Positions 10,553 through 19,979 of a stretch of DNA of 20,000 nt are shown here, piece by piece. The notes beneath the pieces are model-generated. The model saw nothing but the letters and a program-made list of their open reading frames with translations. It had not been told where the DNA came from and searched no databases. Source of the DNA: an uncultured virus (IMG/VR IMGVR_UViG_3300027707_000912) (lineage: Duplodnaviria > Heunggongvirae > Uroviricota > Caudoviricetes); the IMG/VR virus record IMGVR_UViG_3300027707_000912; one strand, given 5' to 3'. The translations under genes and the position numbers were made by a program. Position 1 is the first letter of the stretch. Every line of letters begins with the position of its first letter.

Positions 10553-10621
10553 ATGAAAACGTATCAATTCATTGTAACAGTTTTAATTGTTATATTTGTT
10601 TTGGTACATGTTTTCATGTAA
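10553..10621 (+). CDS. 22-aa hydrophobic peptide MKTYQFIVTVLIVIFVLVHVFM
   Basis: AAGG RBS; same TAA-T-ATG junction; single TM helix ending just before the tmRNA. Confidence 0.55.
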   Translation: MKTYQFIVTVLIVIFVLVHVFM

Positions 10622-10624
10622 GGA

Positions 10625-10956
10625 ATTGTTGTAATCCCTTCAAAGTGAAGGCATTCTGGACGCGGGTTCGACTCCCGCCAGGTCCACCAAAAGGGCACTA
10701 CACCCCTCTTAATAATGGGCAACCTTGTAGTGCGTTTTTGATGGGCCTGCCATGGTTTCGACAGGGTGAGATAATAGAGACGGCAACACAGTAGGCGATG
10801 ACTGTAAATCAAGCAAAACTCGTAAATGCAAACGCAAATACATTCAAGTTTATGCAAGTTGACTTCGACATTTCAGCAATGAATGACGAAGAATTTGCAA
10901 TCGCAGCCTAAGAAACTGCACTTGCGAGGTAGTTATACCTTGTCACCAAAAATAGC
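10625..10956 (+). ncRNA. ssrA: Circularly permuted two-piece tmRNA; tag ANANTFKFMQVDFDISAMNDEEFAIAA
   Basis: T-arm GCGGG-TTCGACT-CCCGC and CAGGTCC-ACCA (to 10689) lie upstream of the 5' strand GGGCCTG (10743-10749), giving G3:U70. AGGGTG pairs with CATTCT. Tag ORF 10828-10911 ends in AIAA-stop. Outer ends approximate. Confidence 0.92.
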
Positions 10957-10983
10957 AGGAACCCGCTTTGGCGGGTTTCTTTT
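10957..10983 (+). terminator. Intrinsic terminator after tmRNA
   Basis: AGGAACCCGC-TTTG-GCGGGTTTCT-TTT. Confidence 0.85.
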
Positions 10984-15206: not shown

Positions 15207-15656
15207 ATGTCTAATACCATTCAAAATTTACACAATGCACTTGCTGGTGAGTCAATGGCTCACATCAAGTATCGCTACTTTGCTAAACTAGCAAGAGCAG
15301 AAGGCTTTGAAGATATTGCCAAACACTTTGAGCACACTGCTGATCAAGAAATTCTTCACGCTTGGGGTCACTTAGACCTAATTCTAGGTAAGCCGACAAC
15401 TAAAGAATGTTTAGAACTAGCAATTGAAGGTGAAACTTATGAGTACACAACAATGTACCCAGAGTACGAAAAAATTGCAGTTGGCGAAGGGCAAATTAAT
15501 TTTGCTGTTGAAGCCCGTGCTAACACAGAAGAATCAAAAGAACATGCTAGACAGTTTGCCGAAGTTCTTAAAAAAGCAGAACGCCGTTTTGCGGCTTTAA
15601 AGCGAGTTGAAGAACGACATGCTAATGCATATAAAGTAAAATTGGAGACATTATAA
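15207..15656 (+). CDS. rbr: Rubrerythrin (ferritin-like di-iron domain only)
   Basis: NLHNALAGESMA, QEILHA, EGETYEYTTMYP and ESKEHA motifs. Confidence 0.92.
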   Translation: MSNTIQNLHNALAGESMAHIKYRYFAKLARAEGFEDIAKHFEHTADQEILHAWGHLDLILGKPTTKECLELAIEGETYEYTTMYPEYEKIAVGEGQINFAVEARANTEESKEHARQFAEVLKKAERRFAALKRVEERHANAYKVKLETL

Positions 15657-15790
15657 TGGAACACGTATGTATTGTATGCGGTCATGTGCATGACGAATTG
15701 ACAGAAGGCAAGTGGGATGAACTAGCAGACGACTTTGTCTGTCCCGAGTGCGGAGTTGGCAAGTCTGACTACGACGAAGTAGATTTTTAA
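15656..15790 (+). CDS. Rubredoxin, 44 aa (MEHVCIVCGHVHDELTEGKWDELADDFVCPECGVGKSDYDEVDF)
   Basis: CxxCG...W..L.DDFVCPxCG; TAATG overlap with rubrerythrin; not in the ORF track. Confidence 0.92.
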   Translation: MEHVCIVCGHVHDELTEGKWDELADDFVCPECGVGKSDYDEVDF

Positions 15791-15904
15791 ATAAAATCGC
15801 TATAGTCTTTTAATGAATTTCACTATAGGTTTTCCTCTAGTTCTGTGTTATTATAATGATACATACTAATGCAGTATGTTAAATTTTTAACAAGGAGAAC
15901 TACT

Positions 15905-15976
15905 ATGTGGACTACACCATCAGCAACAGATATGCGCTTTGGCTTTGAAATTACAATGTACGTGATGAATCGATAG
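15905..15976 (+). CDS. pqqA: PQQ precursor peptide MWTTPSATDMRFGFEITMYVMNR
   Basis: 23 aa; MW..P....R.GFExxxY signature; AAGGAG RBS. Confidence 0.92.
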   Translation: MWTTPSATDMRFGFEITMYVMNR

Positions 15977-16000
15977 TATTGATTCATTTTTAACAAAAAC

Positions 16001-16023
16001 AAATGCCGCTTTTTGCGGCATTT
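16001..16023 (+). terminator. Hairpin/terminator after pqqA
   Basis: AAATGCCGC-TTTTT-GCGGCATTT. Confidence 0.65.
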
Positions 16024-16034
16024 GCATATATGTC

Positions 16035-16245
16035 TTGACACAACGACTAAATAAATGTATACTAGAGACTAGTTAGATAGTTGAGTAAATTCTTTTTGCC
16101 AAATGTGCAAATAGTGGTTGACACAGAGACTAAATAACTATACAATAAGAACATGCACAAGCAACTGCCTGTGTAAGCCGTTGTAGAAATACAACAAAGA
16201 AAGATTTCAAAAGTGGTTGACGAAGATGCTGAAAGGCATTATAAT
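16035..16245 (+). promoter_or_regulatory. Three tandem sigma70 promoters of the tRNA operon
   Basis: TTGACA-17-TATACT (16035-16063), TTGACA-17-TACAAT (16118-16146), TTGACG-17-TATAAT (16217-16245). The first two carry GACTAAATAA in the spacer. Confidence 0.85.
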
Positions 16246-16304
16246 TAACACAAGACACTAGCATTCCGCTAGTAAATTTTAAGAAGAGATAAACGAGAAA
16301 CAAA

Positions 16305-16451
16305 ATGCAATCAACTGTTAAACATCAACAATTTAATACGATGCCTAAACTGGCAGGTGTAATAGCCTGTTCTTGGTTATCGATTAATGGCGGAAGTTTA
16401 TCATATGATCGTACACCAGAGATTCGCAGGGTCCGGGAGACCGTAATGTAA
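16305..16451 (+). CDS. Putative attenuator leader peptide, 48 aa (MQSTVKHQQFNTMPKLAGVIACSWLSINGGSLSYDRTPEIRRVRETVM)
   Basis: Lies between the promoters and a terminator; its 3' end contains the antiterminator strand; weak GAG RBS. Confidence 0.65.
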   Translation: MQSTVKHQQFNTMPKLAGVIACSWLSINGGSLSYDRTPEIRRVRETVM

Positions 16452-16515
16452 GCTAAAGTTTACATAACAAACTTCAAGGACCCTAGGATTAAAAACCCTG
16501 GGGTTTTTTGTTTTT
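16428..16515 (+). terminator. Terminator/antiterminator switch upstream of the tRNA array
   Basis: Terminator AAGGACCCTAGG (16476-16487)/CCTGGGGTTTTT (16497-16508) plus T tract; competing pairing AGGGTCC (16428-16434)/GGACCCT (16478-16484). Confidence 0.75.
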
Positions 16516-16745
16516 AGACGCTGAGATTGCCAAGGCAGTCGTTGAAGCAAAGTGTGAAGATACCAGTAACGAGGACTGGGCTAGGCACTATAAACATCTA
16601 GCAAACGGGCGGCCTGTAGGATGAAGCACTTCTTCTAGTGTGAAAAATTACAGCGTATTAAAGCATATTCCGAAACTAGAATGTTTAGGGGATAAGGCCA
16701 CAAGCCGAGTATGCTTTAATACACGCATTGGAAACAGTGCGTTAA

Positions 16746-16832
16746 GGAGGATGTTCCCTATTGCCGGCTGTAACCCGGTAGGCATAATAAGTAGGGTGGC
16801 GCCAAGTGGTTCGATTCCATCATCCTCCACCA
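16746..16832 (+). tRNA. Atypical tRNA-Tyr(GTA)-like RNA, 8/4 fold, no canonical D-arm
   Basis: GGAGGATG/CATCCTCC-A-CCA; GCCGG-CTGTAAC-CCGGT; GTGG-TTCGATT-CCAT. Confidence 0.6.
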
Positions 16833-16837
16833 AATAT

Positions 16838-16914
16838 GTGGGTGTGCCGCTGAATGGTTAGGCTCCGGATTGCAAATCCGTTCCATGCAGGTTCGAGTCC
16901 TGTCACCCACTCCA
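16838..16914 (+). tRNA. tRNA-Cys(GCA)
   Basis: GTGGGTG/CACCCAC-T-CCA; loop TT-GCA-AA; U73. Confidence 0.9.
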
Positions 16915-16919
16915 AATTT

Positions 16920-16993
16920 TCCCGGATAATTAAATGGTATAATAATCGGCTGATAACCGGTCTTTGCAAGTTCGATTCTTGCTCTGGGAACCA
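16920..16993 (+). tRNA. tRNA-Ile(GAT)
   Basis: TCCCGGA/TCTGGGA-A-CCA; ATCGG-CTGATAA-CCGGT. Confidence 0.9.
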
Positions 16994-16997
16994 AGTT

Positions 16998-17056
16998 TAG
17001 GATAGCAACAGCAAACTCAAAAATTCTACTTTTAATGGAAAAAAGATGCTATCCTG
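16998..17056 (+). ncRNA. ACAGCAA element 1 with Lys(TTT) anticodon stem-loop
   Basis: AGGATAGCA/TGCTATCCT closing stem; TTCTA-CTTTTAA-TGGAA. Confidence 0.65.
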
Positions 17057-17064
17057 TTTTTTAC

Positions 17065-17139
17065 ACTGTCGTCGTCTAGTGGCTAGGACGCTACCCTTTC
17101 AAGGTGGAGAAGCGGGATCGATACCCGTCGACAGTACCA
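17065..17139 (+). tRNA. tRNA-Glu(TTC)
   Basis: ACTGTCG/CGACAGT-A-CCA; CTACC-CTTTCAA-GGTGG; T-loop ATCGATA. Confidence 0.88.
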
Positions 17140-17143
17140 ACAT

Positions 17144-17218
17144 GCCGTTGTAGCTCTCTGGGAGGGTAACTCGTTGTCTGCGAGACTTAGGTGGGTTCGA
17201 TTCCCATCAGCGGCGCCA
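17144..17218 (+). tRNA. tRNA-Asp(GTC)
   Basis: GCCGTTG/CAGCGGC-G-CCA; CTCG-TTGTCTG-CGAG with unusual U37. Confidence 0.82.
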
Positions 17219-17225
17219 AATTTAT

Positions 17226-17303
17226 TGTGTTCGAGCAAGCATGGTGTATGCGCTTCGCTGTTAACGAAGAATGAGCTAGGTTCGATCCCTAGGAACACAG
17301 CCA
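17226..17303 (+). tRNA. tRNA-Asn(GTT)
   Basis: TGTGTTC/GAACACA-G-CCA; CTTCG-CTGTTAA-CGAAG. Confidence 0.88.
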
Positions 17304-17310
17304 AACAATT

Positions 17311-17385
17311 GGGGGCAGTAGTGGGCTACGGCGTTGCCTTGCAAGCATCGTGACTAGAAGGGTTCGATTCCCTCGGCCTCCACCA
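17311..17385 (+). tRNA. tRNA-Ala(TGC), atypical D-arm
   Basis: GGGGGC/GCCTCC-A-CCA with G3:U70; loop CT-TGC-AA; D-arm reduced to GTAG-TGGG-CTAC. Confidence 0.72.
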
Positions 17386-17392
17386 ATTTTAT

Positions 17393-17468
17393 CTCGCGTT
17401 CGGTTAGCGGCTATGCCACCTGGTTTGGGGCCAGGATTTCGTGGGTTCGAGTCCCACATGCGAGACCA
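17393..17468 (+). tRNA. tRNA-Pro(TGG)
   Basis: CTCGCGT/ATGCGAG-A-CCA; CCTGG-TTTGGGG-CCAGG. Confidence 0.88.
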
Positions 17469-17472
17469 GTTT

Positions 17473-17535
17473 TAGGATAGCAACAGCAAACATTAAAAAT
17501 CTTTTCTTGAAAAAAAGCCAAAAAATGCTATCCTG
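17473..17535 (+). ncRNA. ACAGCAA element 2 with Ser(TGA)-like anticodon stem-loop
   Basis: AGGATAGCA/TGCTATCCT closing stem; CTTTT-CTTGAAA-AAAAG. Confidence 0.6.
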
Positions 17536-17543
17536 TTTTATTC

Positions 17544-17617
17544 GCCCTATTAGTTAAATGGTAGAACACCTGTTTTGTAATCAGGTAATGGCAGTTCGAT
17601 TCTGTCATGGGGCACCA
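17544..17617 (+). tRNA. tRNA-Thr(TGT)
   Basis: GCCCTAT/ATGGGGC-A-CCA; loop TT-TGT-AA; U31.U39 mismatch. Confidence 0.88.
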
Positions 17618-17621
17618 AGTT

Positions 17622-17678
17622 AAGGATGCGAACAGCAAATTCAAAAATTCAACTTTTAATTGAAAAATAAGCATCCTG
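17622..17678 (+). ncRNA. ACAGCAA element 3 with Lys(TTT) anticodon stem-loop
   Basis: AGGATGC/GCATCCT closing stem; TTCAA-CTTTTAA-TTGAA. Confidence 0.65.
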
Positions 17679-17686
17679 TTTTATTT

Positions 17687-17762
17687 GCTACTTTAGCTGA
17701 TGTGGTCATAGCGGCGGTCTGAAGAACCGTTGAACCAGGTTCGATCCCTGGAGGTAGCACCA
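17687..17762 (+). tRNA. tRNA-Phe(GAA) copy 1
   Basis: GCTACTT/AGGTAGC-A-CCA; GCGGT-CTGAAGA-ACCGT. Confidence 0.9.
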
Positions 17763-17780
17763 AGTTTTTAGGAGAATTGA

Positions 17781-17909
17781 ATGGCAAATGTCAAAAAAGG
17801 TAACCTAACAGCGCCTCCACAATGGTGGAAGCATTTGAAAGATTGGAAACGGGTGTTCTGGAAATCAGAACGCCAAGCCCAAAAGCGTAATATCAACAAA
17901 GGAGAATGA
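17781..17909 (+). CDS. 42-aa basic Trp-rich peptide MANVKKGNLTAPPQWWKHLKDWKRVFWKSERQAQKRNINKGE
   Basis: AGGAGA RBS; embedded in the tRNA array. Confidence 0.75.
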   Translation: MANVKKGNLTAPPQWWKHLKDWKRVFWKSERQAQKRNINKGE

Positions 17910-17910
17910 C

Positions 17911-17989
17911 ATGAAACGTACAGGTAAACTGTAGTGTCATCCTAGACCCCCGTATGGTCCTGGATGGCACGTAAAAGAAAACATTTACG
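17911..17989 (+). other. Minigene MKRTGKL-TAG followed by two hairpins
   Basis: AAGGAGA RBS; stop at 17932-17934; GTGTCATCC..GACC-CCCGTAT-GGTC..GGATGGCAC, then CGTAAA/TTTACG. Confidence 0.5.
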
Positions 17990-17996
17990 AATCCAT

Positions 17997-18072
17997 CCAC
18001 AGCTGGCGTTAACGGTAGCGTACTCGGCTCTTAACCGATGAGGTGTCAGTTCGAATCTGACGCTGTGGACCA
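17997..18072 (+). tRNA. tRNA-Lys(CTT)
   Basis: CCACAGC/GCTGTGG-A-CCA; TCGG-CTCTTAA-CCGA. Confidence 0.85.
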
Positions 18073-18075
18073 TAT

Positions 18076-18150
18076 GGGGGTATAATTCAAAGGCTAGAAT
18101 AGCCGGCTTTTAACCGGTCTATCAGGGTTCGAGTCCCTGTGCCCCTACCA
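18076..18150 (+). tRNA. tRNA-Lys(TTT)
   Basis: GGGGGTA/TGCCCCT-A-CCA; GCCGG-CTTTTAA-CCGGT. Confidence 0.9.
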
Positions 18151-18228
18151 TATAAAAACACATTAGAAGCCTTCGTGACTGTAGGCAAGTAGGTCTCTAA
18201 GTCGTTTCCGACTAGTGTGTTTCTATAT

Positions 18229-18304
18229 GGTAACGTAGCATAGTGGCTAATGCACCACCTTCATACGGTGTTTATCGTGGGTTCGAGTCCCACCGTTACT
18301 ACCA
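18229..18304 (+). tRNA. tRNA with CAT anticodon (elongator Met or Ile2)
   Basis: GGTAACG/CGTTACT-A-CCA; CACC-TTCATAC-GGTG; lacks the initiator GGG/CCC pairs. Confidence 0.85.
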
Positions 18305-18307
18305 AGT

Positions 18308-18520
18308 TTTGTAAGTGTCAGCAAGAGAATGTCATGCTGTCTAGGTTTCTTCGAAGGACCGAAACAGTAGAAGGTGATGGGTTCAACTCCCAACCACTCG
18401 CAAGGGTGGTGTCTGTAACGGAGACAAACTGGACTAGTATCCCAAGTGACGTACCGAATCCCGCTCGAGCTTGTTAATTCGGGTGAATGGTTCCAATAAT
18501 GTGGTGGAACTACTTACAAA
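18308..18520 (+). ncRNA. About 213-nt multibranched structured RNA, unassigned
   Basis: Closing stem TTTGTAAGT/ACTTACAAA followed by CAGCAA; inner ATGTCAT/GTGACGT domain with TGGG-TTCAACT-CCCA and ACCACTC-GCAA-GGGTGGT. Confidence 0.65.
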
Positions 18521-18528
18521 TTCAATAT

Positions 18529-18604
18529 CTCTCTAAAGTGTTACCTGGTTGCATCCGCGGTTTGGGGCCGTGTGGTCTTGGTTCGAATCCAAGTAGGGAG
18601 ACCA
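18529..18604 (+). tRNA. tRNA-Pro(TGG), second divergent gene
   Basis: CTCTCTA/TAGGGAG-A-CCA; CGCGG-TTTGGGG-CCGTG. Confidence 0.85.
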
Positions 18605-18612
18605 GTTTCTGT

Positions 18613-18686
18613 TCGGGAATAGTGTAATGGTAACACTACAGACTTTGACTCTGTCATTCTAGGTTCGAGCCCTAGTTCCCGTGCCA
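18613..18686 (+). tRNA. tRNA-Gln(TTG)
   Basis: CGGGAA/TTCCCG with U1.U72, G73, CCA; ACAGA-CTTTGAC-TCTGT. Confidence 0.9.
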
Positions 18687-18692
18687 ATCAAT

Positions 18693-18769
18693 CGGACCGT
18701 AATTCAATTGGATAGAAAGCAAGTCTTCGAAACTTGAGGTTGGGAGTTCGAATCTCTCCGGTCCGGCCA
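18693..18769 (+). tRNA. tRNA-Arg(TCG)
   Basis: CGGACCG/CGGTCCG-G-CCA; CAAGT-CTTCGAA-ACTTG. Confidence 0.9.
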
Positions 18770-18775
18770 ATCAGT

Positions 18776-18849
18776 GTTGTTCCTAGTGTAGTGGTCGCAC
18801 AACTGTCTGTGAAACAGTTAGAGAGGGTTCGATTCCCCGGTCCAACCCA
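18776..18849 (+). tRNA. tRNA-His(GTG), degenerate or possible pseudogene
   Basis: ACTGT-CTGTGAA-ACAGT intact and G-1:C73 possible, but two acceptor-stem mismatches and a short T-stem. Confidence 0.55.
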
Positions 18850-18863
18850 ATGAATTTATCAAT

Positions 18864-19562
18864 TTAAATTTTAGATAGAATATGTTCAGCTATGTTCTGA
18901 TTAGTGTTGACACCACGGTGAGCTAAATCTCTAGCGAGATCATTCTCAATTATCCTAAAATTATGTAAATCTTCATATTCGATTTGAATTAACTTAATAT
19001 CTAGATTGTTACAGATATGCTGGATAGCTAATGTATTTTTAAAGAAATTCATTTCACTATTAGTATCATTTAGCACCCAGTTTTTCCAAATTTGATCTTT
19101 TGACCAAGGTCCGTAATCTTGTATTACAGAGTTATAATGACGTTCAAATCGATGACGAGATGTTGACAAGTGAACAACTATTTTCGGTTTAAGTTGCGAG
19201 AGCCAATAGTGAGCCATTCTGAATGCAGTGTCATTTGAAGATGAACCTATCCCTAAATTAAAATTTTTGAGATTTAGATTATTGCTCACAATACTAGCCC
19301 AGCAATTTTCGATAGGCAATCCAATGCCGCAAGTATAACTACAACCCAAAGATACCATACTAGGTTCGTTAGAAAATTCGTCACTTCTAAATCCGTAGCT
19401 ATTAAATTTATAGCTGAATTTTTTGTCTAGCCAACCAAACTTAACCATCTCGTCATATCTATTTGCTACGTTTTCAACATACAGCTCTTTAGTATCCATA
19501 GGTAACCATTCTAATGTTTGTTTGGCTTTCGTTGAATATTGGTGTAATATTTTATTGAACAT
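18864..19562 (-). CDS. Hypothetical protein, SGNH/GDSL-hydrolase-like, antisense within the tRNA array
   Basis: LGCSYTCG (block I-like), NLGIGSSSND (block II-like), DLAHRG (DxxH). Likely start MFNKIL at 19562, just after TAAATA. Confidence 0.7.
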   Translation of the reverse strand: MFNKILHQYSTKAKQTLEWLPMDTKELYVENVANRYDEMVKFGWLDKKFSYKFNSYGFRSDEFSNEPSMVSLGCSYTCGIGLPIENCWASIVSNNLNLKNFNLGIGSSSNDTAFRMAHYWLSQLKPKIVVHLSTSRHRFERHYNSVIQDYGPWSKDQIWKNWVLNDTNSEMNFFKNTLAIQHICNNLDIKLIQIEYEDLHNFRIIENDLARDLAHRGVNTNQNIAEHILSKI

Positions 19563-19606
19563 GCAAATATTTATTTGCACAACTAGTATAGGAAAATAAT
19601 TTTCAT

Positions 19607-19682
19607 GCTACTTTAGCTGATGTGGTCATAGCGGCGGTCTGAAGAATCGTTGAACCAGGTTCGATTCCTGGAGGTAGCACCA
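19607..19682 (+). tRNA. tRNA-Phe(GAA) copy 2
   Basis: Identical to 17687..17762 at 74 of 76 positions. Confidence 0.9.
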
Positions 19683-19690
19683 AGACACAT

Positions 19691-19774
19691 GCGAGAGTGG
19701 TGGAATGGTATACACAGCAGACTTAAAATCTGCCGCCGCAAGGCATACGGGTTCGAGTCCCGTCTCTCGCACCA
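19691..19774 (+). tRNA. tRNA-Leu(TAA)
   Basis: GCGAGAG/CTCTCGC-A-CCA; GCAGA-CTTAAAA-TCTGC; long variable arm. Confidence 0.93.
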
Positions 19775-19775
19775 T

Positions 19776-19850
19776 ACCGCCTTAGTATAATGGATAATAC
19801 AAAGAGCTTCTACCTCTTGAATATGGGTTCGATTCCTGTAGGCGGTACCA
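19776..19850 (+). tRNA. tRNA-Arg(TCT)
   Basis: ACCGCCT/AGGCGGT-A-CCA; AAGAG-CTTCTAC-CTCTT. Confidence 0.9.
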
Positions 19851-19858
19851 GATAAAGG

Positions 19859-19887
19859 TTGACAATAAAAAAAATAGAGTATATAAT
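19859..19887 (+). promoter_or_regulatory. Consensus sigma70 promoter internal to the tRNA array
   Basis: TTGACA-17 nt-TATAAT. Confidence 0.88.
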
Positions 19888-19895
19888 ACATATAT

Positions 19896-19979
19896 GCCCC
19901 GGTGGTGGAATGGTAGACACGCTGGTCTTAGAAGCCAGTGTCGCAAGGCGTGAGAGTTCGAGTCTCTCCTGGGGCACCA
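19896..19979 (+). tRNA. tRNA-Leu(TAG)
   Basis: GCCCCGG/CTGGGGC-A-CCA; CTGGT-CTTAGAA-GCCAG; long variable arm. Confidence 0.93.

Follow-up and report, generated by a model that had tools for sequence, protein, structure and literature searches.

A candidate ribosome-mediated attenuator with an amino-acid-complete leader ahead of phage tRNA genes

Introduction

In a stretch of 20,000 nucleotides (nt) from an uncultured freshwater member of the Caudoviricetes (IMG/VR record IMGVR_UViG_3300027707_000912), referred to here as the window, an open reading frame (ORF) of 48 codons and an intrinsic terminator precede an array of transfer RNA (tRNA) genes. We propose that this leader ORF and its terminator form a ribosome-mediated transcription attenuator that heads the phage tRNA operon and senses the decoding of any amino acid, a reading to which we give a probability of roughly 0.55. 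The proposal was obtained by sequence analysis and draws on the translation of a conserved ORF, on two mutually exclusive RNA structures that both covary, on the position of the stop codon relative to these structures, on synteny with tRNA genes and on the retention of a complete set of amino acids in the leader peptide. An initial annotation of the window had suggested an attenuator responding at the level of codons. The structural and comparative part of that suggestion is supported, whereas sensing at the codon level is not, the signal being found at the level of amino acids.

A family of leaders preceding tRNA arrays

The leader ORF lies on the plus strand at positions 16305-16451, as initially annotated, with an ATG start and a TAA stop. 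A scan of viral contigs with its peptide returned 62 loci sharing 45-88% identity, and a profile of diverged leader members added 48 further loci, for 110 viral loci in total. This second profile was built from a smaller alignment because the 60-sequence alignment was too diverse. When 1.84 billion cluster representatives were searched with a profile, 87 matches were obtained at E ≤ 0.001. Every complete locus carries an ATG-initiated ORF of 42-52 codons ending in TAA, both complementary arms of the helix described below and a terminator. Homologous loci without the ORF or without the complementarity had been named beforehand as telling against the attenuator, and no complete locus is of that kind. 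The layout is incomplete in three loci that are truncated by the end of their contig and in L109, where a natural deletion has removed the stretch between arm and terminator. In L109 (2001-2160) and in the proteins P0060 and P0061 this stretch is deleted or read through and the leader frame continues; such variants may be constitutive read-through forms.

An array of tRNA genes on the same strand follows the leader in 61 of 62 evaluated loci of the first set and in 45 of 47 of the second, at a distance of 262-1153 nt past the stop codon. The claim that the element heads tRNA arrays therefore extends from the window to 106 of 109 evaluable loci, and the three loci without an array end no more than 521 nt after the stop. 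Without exception, the downstream tRNAs are encoded on the leader's strand (1211/1211).

The leader as a translated ORF

The frame of the leader is under constraint. Among 46 distinct sequences, no in-frame stop is found, against 81 and 198 stops in the other two frames, and the ratio of non-synonymous to synonymous differences (pN/pS) over codons 1-40 is 0.52 in frame and 0.90 and 1.02 out of frame. The ATG lies 81-114 nt from a motif conserved at the nucleotide level, GATCGY, and the nine different distances observed are all multiples of 3 (85 of 85 distinct sequences). Past this motif the picture changes: the distance from GATCGY to the 5' arm of the helix, taken modulo 3, is 1 in 47 sequences and 0 in 35, so that the arm is read in two frames (RVR as opposed to QGS or PGS), and pN/pS in the tail of the leader rises to 1.5. 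The head of the ORF is therefore under coding constraint and its tail under RNA constraint. Judged by these comparative signatures, the 48-codon leader is a translated ORF. Readings of the ORF as a signal recognition particle-like, transfer-messenger RNA (tmRNA)-like or purely non-coding RNA were dropped on account of the frame-preserving insertions and deletions.

The peptide contains near-invariant residues, W24, A-I-N and D-R-T-P-E (W..AIN..DRTPE), at which synonymous sites are frozen as well: GAT is used in 86 of 86 cases and ACA in 80 of 80 Thr codons, with CCA in 74 and GAG in 78. These codons form both strands of a hairpin predicted on the plus strand at 16371-16422, from the Trp codon to the DRTP codons, in the minimum free energy (MFE) fold and by alifold, which would account for their conservation. 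UGG is paired with ACACC in the MFE structure of 64 of 83 distinct leaders, with a mean z of -2.0. By analogy with the leaders of trp or his type, in which a pause hairpin is placed similarly, this mid-ORF hairpin would pause RNA polymerase. As it stops 6 nt short of the helix arm and has no bases in common with it, it cannot serve as an anti-antiterminator. Conservation despite peptide divergence, which the initial annotation had expected, was borne out for the ORF, the complementarity and the terminator, but the peptide does not diverge freely, W..AIN..DRTPE being frozen down to its synonymous sites.

The leader peptide matched no Pfam family and no PHROG family. AlphaFold2, run with the 60-sequence alignment, predicted no secondary structure (mean predicted local distance difference test, pLDDT, of 62; predicted template modelling score, pTM, of 0.12), which is weak evidence.

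Two mutually exclusive RNA folds

The 3' end of the leader and the region that follows can adopt two structures. The candidate antiterminator, identified by folding and covariation, is a long helix on the plus strand at 16428-16484, made of segment P1 (16428-16434/16478-16484) and segment P2 (16436-16439/16472-16475). Within it, an inner hairpin (16446-16465, plus strand) encloses the stop codon (16449-16451). The 5' strand of segment P1, AGGGTCC (16428-16434), and its 3' strand, GGACCCT (16478-16484), are exact reverse complements. This complementarity, its extension through GGAG/CTTC and the inner stop-codon hairpin had all been described initially, and all are seen in the MFE structure of 16400-16520, which is the long helix (-33.1 kcal/mol, z = -2.66; 4 of 200 shuffled sequences fold as well). 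The energy of the alternative helix here is -24.3 kcal/mol. The second structure is the intrinsic terminator (16480-16515, plus strand), with a stem at 16480-16487/16497-16504, a loop of 9 nt and a T-tract at 16504-16515 (T6GT5); its hairpin has an energy of -13.6 to -15.8 kcal/mol. Its position between the leader ORF and the tRNAs, with the T-tract reaching 16515, agrees with the initial annotation, although a simple terminator scanner missed the hairpin on account of the 9-nt loop. Positions 16480-16484 belong to both the 5' arm of the terminator and the alternative helix.

A single complement of 7 nt in one sequence is unremarkable. What is remarkable is its conservation and covariation across distinct relatives, assessed here on an alignment of 80 distinct 3' segments. 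For the alternative structure, 90.3% of alignment cells are paired and the covariation score is 0.241, compared with 0.178 in shuffled alignments, none of 500 reaching the observed value; the score collapses once the partners are slid against each other. The outermost pair of the helix (columns 8 and 77) is G-C in 38 sequences, A-U in 37, G-U in 4 and unpaired in 1. In the terminator, column 77 pairs instead with column 94, as C-G in 38 sequences, U-G in 38 and U-A in 4. Since column 77 takes part in both the helix and the terminator, the two folds are mutually exclusive. The terminator hairpin and its T-tract are present in 80 of 80 sequences, with 99.7% of cells paired and three pairs changed on both sides (0 of 500 shuffles). 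Covariation of terminator and antiterminator in related phages, which had been proposed as a check, is thus found for both folds. Mapped onto a tree built from the upstream part, the state of the arm pair requires at least 16 changes.

In all 80 sequences, the alternative helix exceeds the terminator in stability (mean -24.2 against -15.0 kcal/mol), and it is present in the MFE fold of 68 of them. The stop codon, TAA throughout (80/80), follows the 5' arm by 8-27 nt (median 15) and precedes the 3' arm by 18-32 nt (median 25). Among the curated RNA families of Rfam 15, no covariance model matched the element, the highest-scoring noise being the trpB motif (21.4 bits, E = 3) and His_leader (16.8 bits, E = 5.7).

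Amino-acid completeness and codon variety

The leader of the window contains all 20 amino acids and 37 distinct codons, with four codons each for Thr, Arg and Ser and three each for Gly and Val, and includes ATA, AGG and CGG. These counts, already given in the initial annotation, were confirmed, and so was its expectation of about 33 distinct codons under uniform use of 61 codons (33.4), with a lower value under local usage (29.7 ± 2.4). Drawing from local usage, 37 or more distinct codons are obtained with P(≥37) = 0.0018. None of 309 segments of 48 codons from the window's own long ORFs reaches this number, nor does any of 2019 from the long ORFs of related loci, and all 20 amino acids are found in 0.3% of such segments in the window's own genes and in 3.8% in those of related loci. 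Of the three codons singled out as rare, AGG and CGG are so and ATA is not, as it represents 31% of Ile codons; the presence of AGG and CGG is fixed by RNA pairing, both lying in the helix arm AGG GTC CGG.

Once the peptide is held constant, the variety of codons is no longer unusual. For the window peptide, usage-weighted synonymous choice gives 33.7 ± 2.1 distinct codons (P = 0.084) and uniform synonymous choice 35.9 ± 2.0 (P(≥37) = 0.38). Over 83 distinct leaders, a set from which four truncated or deleted loci were left out, the number of distinct codons exceeds the usage-weighted expectation (z = +1.78) and matches uniform synonymous choice, which denotes an absence of codon bias rather than selection for variety. 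The codon diversity of the leader is accordingly outside the null distribution derived from local usage, as had been anticipated, but within expectation for its peptide, and the idea of a separate pan-codon signal is not supported: codon variety here is amino-acid variety combined with a lack of codon bias.

Amino-acid variety itself is maintained in the family. All 20 amino acids are present in 44 of 46 distinct peptides of the first locus set, in 74 of the 83 distinct leader ORFs when both sets are taken together and in 59 of 80 cluster representatives, another 19 of which lack exactly one residue type. These 80 representatives were retained from the 87 clusters (50% identity) after three long repetitive false matches, two terminator read-throughs, one fusion and one fragment had been dropped, and mis-called N-terminal extensions were trimmed. 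Random draws from the composition of the proteome or of the family would give about 4 complete peptides in 80, with maxima of 10 and 11 in 400 simulations each. Shuffling residues within alignment columns gives 18.1 ± 3.4, and none of 2000 shuffles attains 59. A tree null, in which sites evolve independently along a FastTree tree with site-specific frequencies and rates from a complete root, gives 20.7 ± 4.2, and 59 is reached in none of 300 runs.

The excess originates from residues that change position and yet are retained, namely Cys, Tyr and Phe. Cys is missing from 10 representatives where column shuffling predicts 25.9, Tyr from 1 (13.5 predicted), Phe from 3 (12.7) and His from 1 (19.2), the figure for His being possibly inflated by misalignment. 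The number of Cys per peptide is 0 in 10 representatives, 1 in 55 and 2 in 15 (mean 1.06, variance 0.31), and the single Cys is spread over 22 alignment columns. Peptides without both usual Tyr residues possess a Tyr elsewhere in 16 of 17 cases, compared with 26 of the 63 others (Fisher test, 7e-5). The segment preceding the helix arm (median 37 residues) is complete by itself in 38 of 80 representatives, against 7.6 ± 2.4 by column shuffling. In a neighbouring family of small ORFs of similar length, a single peptide of 42 is complete.

The region downstream of the terminator

In the window, the tRNA array comprises at least 20 genes on the plus strand (16838-19979), the first starting at 16838 according to Rfam or at 16920 according to ARAGORN, and runs past the end of the window. 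It is preceded at 16745-16829, on the same strand, by a tRNA-Tyr(GUA)-like gene with a shortened D arm, whose anticodon was read by eye. This gene has a full acceptor stem, a T arm, a long variable arm and CCA, was missed by ARAGORN and by the Rfam tRNA model, and scores 24.5 bits, below threshold, with the tRNA-Sec model. It aligns with the tRNA-Tyr that opens the array of six relatives, and the array of the window probably begins with it.

Between the terminator and the first tRNA lies a conserved structured RNA block of about 115-155 nt (16550-16663 on the plus strand), possibly closed by pairing of 16521-16526 with 16670-16675. It was detected with nhmmer in 89 of 110 loci, always on the plus strand. 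Compensatory changes affect 11 of its 14 predicted pairs, two hairpins covary strongly and one loop is conserved; a pseudoknot is possible. No Rfam family matched this block. In most relatives, a second conserved small ORF of about 50 codons (48-60), rich in Lys, Glu and Arg, has a good ribosome-binding site and begins no more than about 20 nt from the T-tract (for instance L001:3224-3394, L009:3226-3390 and L038:3225-3383, with many other loci alike). It is absent from the window and from L019, L020 and L027, and searches of Pfam and PHROG assigned it to no family, returning weak noise only.

No promoter-like site with at least 10 of 12 matches was found in 16516-16838 of the window, so the structured RNA and the tRNAs would depend there on read-through. 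The same holds between terminator and first tRNA in 62 of 89 distinct loci, where no site of this quality was found. The stretch occurs in six RNA libraries (metatranscriptomes), and in the four that were analysed the leader is covered by assembled contigs, which may include DNA and whose depth, starts and ends are unreadable. Their summed depth peaks at 16357-16617 in all four libraries, a region common to many relatives, so that the peak is no sign of expression or termination. One such contig starts at 16250, beside the predicted start of the transcript, and three others (16475-17145, 16476-16614 and 16485-16670) cross the T-tract, a hint at most that read-through molecules exist.

Promoters and 5' untranslated region

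The three sigma70 promoters of the initial annotation are present as promoter-like sites on the plus strand upstream of the leader, each with 11 of 12 matches: promoter P1 (TTGACA-17-TATACT, 16035-16063), promoter P2 (TTGACA-17-TACAAT, 16118-16146) and promoter P3 (TTGACG-17-TATAAT, 16217-16245). It is P3 that is kept in relatives, both of its hexamers being near-invariant in 47 aligned distinct sequences, and a promoter-like site with at least 10 of 12 matches occurs within 130 nt 5' of the leader ATG in 78 of 89 distinct loci. Transcription would start near 16252, next to a hairpin of the 5' untranslated region formed by the inverted repeat ACTAGC/GCTAGT (16256-16274, plus strand) and recovered as a stem by RNAalifold. 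In the alignment of distinct loci, the letters of this stem vary and its complementarity is kept.

A different arrangement is seen in a subgroup of loci (L067, L069, L071-L077, L083 and L089-L092), in which the -10 box is located about 12 nt before the leader ATG at 2001 (sites 12-40 nt), which would make the leader mRNA nearly leaderless. The same loci have one or two tRNAs upstream and a second strong promoter-like site past the terminator. In the window, a perfect hairpin of 6 base pairs (bp) with a GAAA loop (GTTGTA GAAA TACAAC, 16180-16195) stands just 5' of promoter P3, and in many relatives words of it reappear ahead of the promoter. Its function could be that of an operator or of an upstream terminator.

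A model for control of the tRNA operon

In the attenuator that we propose, host RNA polymerase would start at the conserved sigma70-type promoter and transcribe the 48-codon leader. The RNA made last could then fold in two ways, either into the long helix at 16428-16484, which holds the stop codon, or into the terminator at 16480-16515, which reuses five of the helix bases. If no ribosome were present, or if it came late, the long helix would form and polymerase would read through; as this helix is made first and is the more stable of the two, a bare transcript should indeed read through. Polymerase would then reach the small ORF in most relatives, next the structured RNA and finally the tRNA genes. 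A ribosome arriving on time in the last dozen codons would instead unwind the 5' arm and cover it at the stop codon, the terminator would form and transcription would end. A delay anywhere in roughly the first 36 codons would leave the arm free and allow read-through into the tRNA operon. We infer, in short, that the position of the ribosome selects the fold and that read-through rises on stalling. As the leader retains all 20 amino acids, most of them in one or two copies, the ribosome would be held up whenever any one of them is decoded slowly, and transcription into the tRNA operon would follow. The outcome would be a negative feedback on the supply of tRNA or aminoacyl-tRNA.

A more demanding version, which we hold tentatively and at somewhat below even odds, makes the leader a purpose-built probe of the whole decoding apparatus, the loss of any usable tRNA opening the replacement set of the phage. 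Starvation, a host anticodon nuclease or another tRNA-cleaving defence might conceivably bring about such a loss.

Several observations weigh against an attenuator that senses every amino acid. The variety of codons requires no selection beyond that of amino acids. Completeness is imperfect, 21 of 80 representatives being incomplete, mostly for want of Cys (10) or Val (6), and the permutation and tree nulls hang on a MAFFT alignment and a FastTree tree of sequences of about 48 residues. Of the 59 complete representatives, 21 have a residue type that only the tail supplies, at or after the helix arm, where a stall should favour termination and not read-through. The leader has no runs of a regulatory codon, most amino acids occurring 1-4 times in the 48 codons of the window leader, and by analogy a single hungry codon would delay the ribosome less than the five to seven of classical attenuators. 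The Shine-Dalgarno sequence before the leader is weak (GAGA-type), while the neighbouring small ORF has AAGGA at good spacing. Fold predictions of the leaders gave no anti-antiterminator overlapping the helix, so that the default state of an untranslated leader would be ON, unlike that of trp. Some of the changes of the arm pair may reflect exchange of the entire 3' module by recombination, and not compensatory mutation. Lastly, a strong promoter-like site lies between the terminator and the tRNAs in 27 of 89 distinct loci.

Alternative explanations

The structures, their geometry and the tRNA synteny would fit equally well with an attenuator that senses overall translation only, through ribosome supply, initiation or the coupling of ribosome and polymerase, the presence of all 20 amino acids being then a side effect of a short ORF that encodes RNA hairpins. 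Much of the conserved peptide does coincide with RNA hairpins, codon variety is ordinary for the peptide, 21 of 80 representatives do without a complete set, and one or two occurrences of each amino acid would make a poor sensor of mild shortage. Such a sensor nonetheless appears unlikely to us in view of the completeness, which surpasses the column-shuffle (0/2000) and tree (0/300) nulls, of the single wandering Cys kept across 22 columns and of the replacement of a lost Tyr elsewhere in 16 of 17 cases; compensation of this sort is not the product of RNA constraints acting at fixed positions. The all-20 pattern would equally be left without explanation if the leader were an ordinary gene for a small protein, served by its own strong promoter and followed by a leaky terminator, its peptide acting in trans, its helix stabilizing the mRNA or shaping translation termination, and the tRNAs being expressed by constitutive read-through or from promoters of their own. 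A conserved family with 87 cluster representatives, an invariant W and DRTPE and a pN/pS below 1 is what one would expect of a protein gene, and the downstream promoter-like site in 27 of 89 loci and the RNA-library contigs crossing the terminator, though possibly including DNA, are in keeping with it. However, pN/pS is only 0.52 and reaches 1.5 in the tail, the part of the C-terminus encoded by the conserved RNA arm occurs in two reading frames, and a helix in competition with the terminator of this gene is maintained by selection. With frozen synonymous sites that point to constraint on RNA and not on protein, and with neither a confident fold nor a Pfam or PHROG family, we regard the small-protein gene as a slightly weaker candidate still.

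Two further possibilities concern the RNA itself. Sites of RNase III type are found between genes of phage early transcripts, and the long interrupted helix of about 21 bp could be one of them, parting the leader mRNA from the tRNA precursor. Its helices stack to about two turns with internal loops, covariation shows that it forms, and the element precedes RNAs that need processing. Cleavage would explain neither the bases shared with a conserved terminator nor the constant location of the stop codon inside the helix, and it gives no reason for an ORF that is kept open and complete in amino acids; a processing site therefore seems improbable. The terminated leader transcript of about 260 nt might also be the product in its own right, a small RNA with a dual function whose peptide likewise acts in trans, as reported for the RNA and peptide of the Sinorhizobium trp attenuator. 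Such a compact structured RNA would be bounded by the strong conserved promoter and 5' hairpin on one side and by the terminator on the other, and trans-acting attenuator RNAs and leader peptides are described in the available parts of PMC6614838 and PMC7298713. This last proposal is compatible with a switch acting in cis, leaves amino-acid completeness unexplained and is, in our estimate, the least probable of all.

Comparison with known systems

Leader-peptide attenuation is textbook knowledge for amino-acid operons, the classical examples being the trpL, hisL, pheL, leuL, thrL and ilvL leaders of enterobacterial amino-acid operons and pheST. The phage element resembles them by its short translated leader, by a terminator placed before the regulated genes, by an alternative helix that overlaps the 5' arm of the terminator, by the presumed role of ribosome position as the selector and by a hairpin inside the leader that may pause polymerase. 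Attenuators of this enterobacterial type are described in the available parts of PMC3082878 and PMC4046918. The phage element departs from the type in several respects: codon runs are replaced by one or two occurrences of each of the 20 amino acids, the regulated genes are tRNAs, together with a small ORF and a structured RNA, and not biosynthetic or synthetase genes, the stop codon is inside the antiterminator and the element is borne by a phage. As it has no anti-antiterminator, its untranslated transcript should read through where that of a classical attenuator terminates. Among the hallmarks of attenuators, the translated ORF on the same strand, the terminator and the mutually exclusive structure are found here; codon runs and an anti-antiterminator are not.

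Multivalent attenuators exist as well, such as the thr and ilvGMEDA leaders, which respond to two or three amino acids. As in these, one leader would read several amino acids, with the difference that all 20 are covered and that there are no clusters of two or three. Other leaders respond to the state of translation, such as the tet(M)/Tn916 leader with its rare codons, the antibiotic-responsive upstream ORF (uORF) attenuators of vmlR, lmo0919 and mef/msr, and the toiL-topAI uORF. These leaders answer drugs or specific stalling motifs and control resistance genes, unlike the phage leader, and for none of them do we know of a report of a full set of amino acids or of control over tRNA genes. 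They share with the phage leader an output that is set by the movement of ribosomes along a short uORF and not by one metabolite. Leaders that sense the general state of translation are treated in the available parts of PMC4335068 and 10.1101/2021.03.24.436905.

A T-box reading of the element was dropped, as the T-box family (RF00230) had no match in 15950-17000, either at the gathering threshold or at E ≤ 10. The T-box riboswitch likewise couples the status of tRNA to read-through of a terminator by means of an antiterminator, but it binds uncharged tRNA directly and is untranslated, whereas the phage element has a conserved translated ORF.

Genomic setting of the window

The window appears to derive from the genome of a large uncultured phage. 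Rubrerythrin and rubredoxin genes (15207-15790) are located directly upstream of a gene for a PqqA-family precursor peptide (15869-15976), all assigned with Pfam, and the DNA of the pqqA-like gene is 79-86% identical to that of Methylophilales phages. A tmRNA gene of betaproteobacterial type (10573-10980) sits on this phage-like contig; it was identified with Rfam, the permuted-tmRNA model matches too, and ARAGORN gives a tag peptide. Among GenBank phages, the leader element has no protein or DNA match, the matches of the window being limited to tRNAs and pqqA, and this search revealed no cultured phage with the element. The sole match among 185,579 species genomes is a copy with 85% identity in a metagenome-assembled genome binned as Polynucleobacter, on a contig of 6.2 kb (L111, 1501-1644), possibly a weak hint at the host or a binning artefact.

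Implications for phage biology

The function of phage tRNA arrays is debated between the supply of codons and escape from tRNA-cleaving defences, as set out in the available parts of PMC10264068. In the portion of the literature available to us, neither control of tRNA genes by a leader peptide, in phages or in bacteria, nor a leader complete in amino acids was found to be described. If the attenuator proposed here is real, it would be the first case of leader-peptide attenuation governing tRNA genes and would give engineers a compact, natural means of sensing translation capacity. The size of the family (110 viral loci and 87 protein clusters) and its diversity make it well suited to strong comparative tests. 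Phage tRNA arrays would then be made on demand and not constitutively, which would explain how large phages avoid overproducing some 25 tRNAs. A direct and testable link would also be drawn between tRNA-targeting immunity and the regulation of phage genes, and in the more demanding version of the model the arrays would act as an inducible and self-limiting counter-defence.

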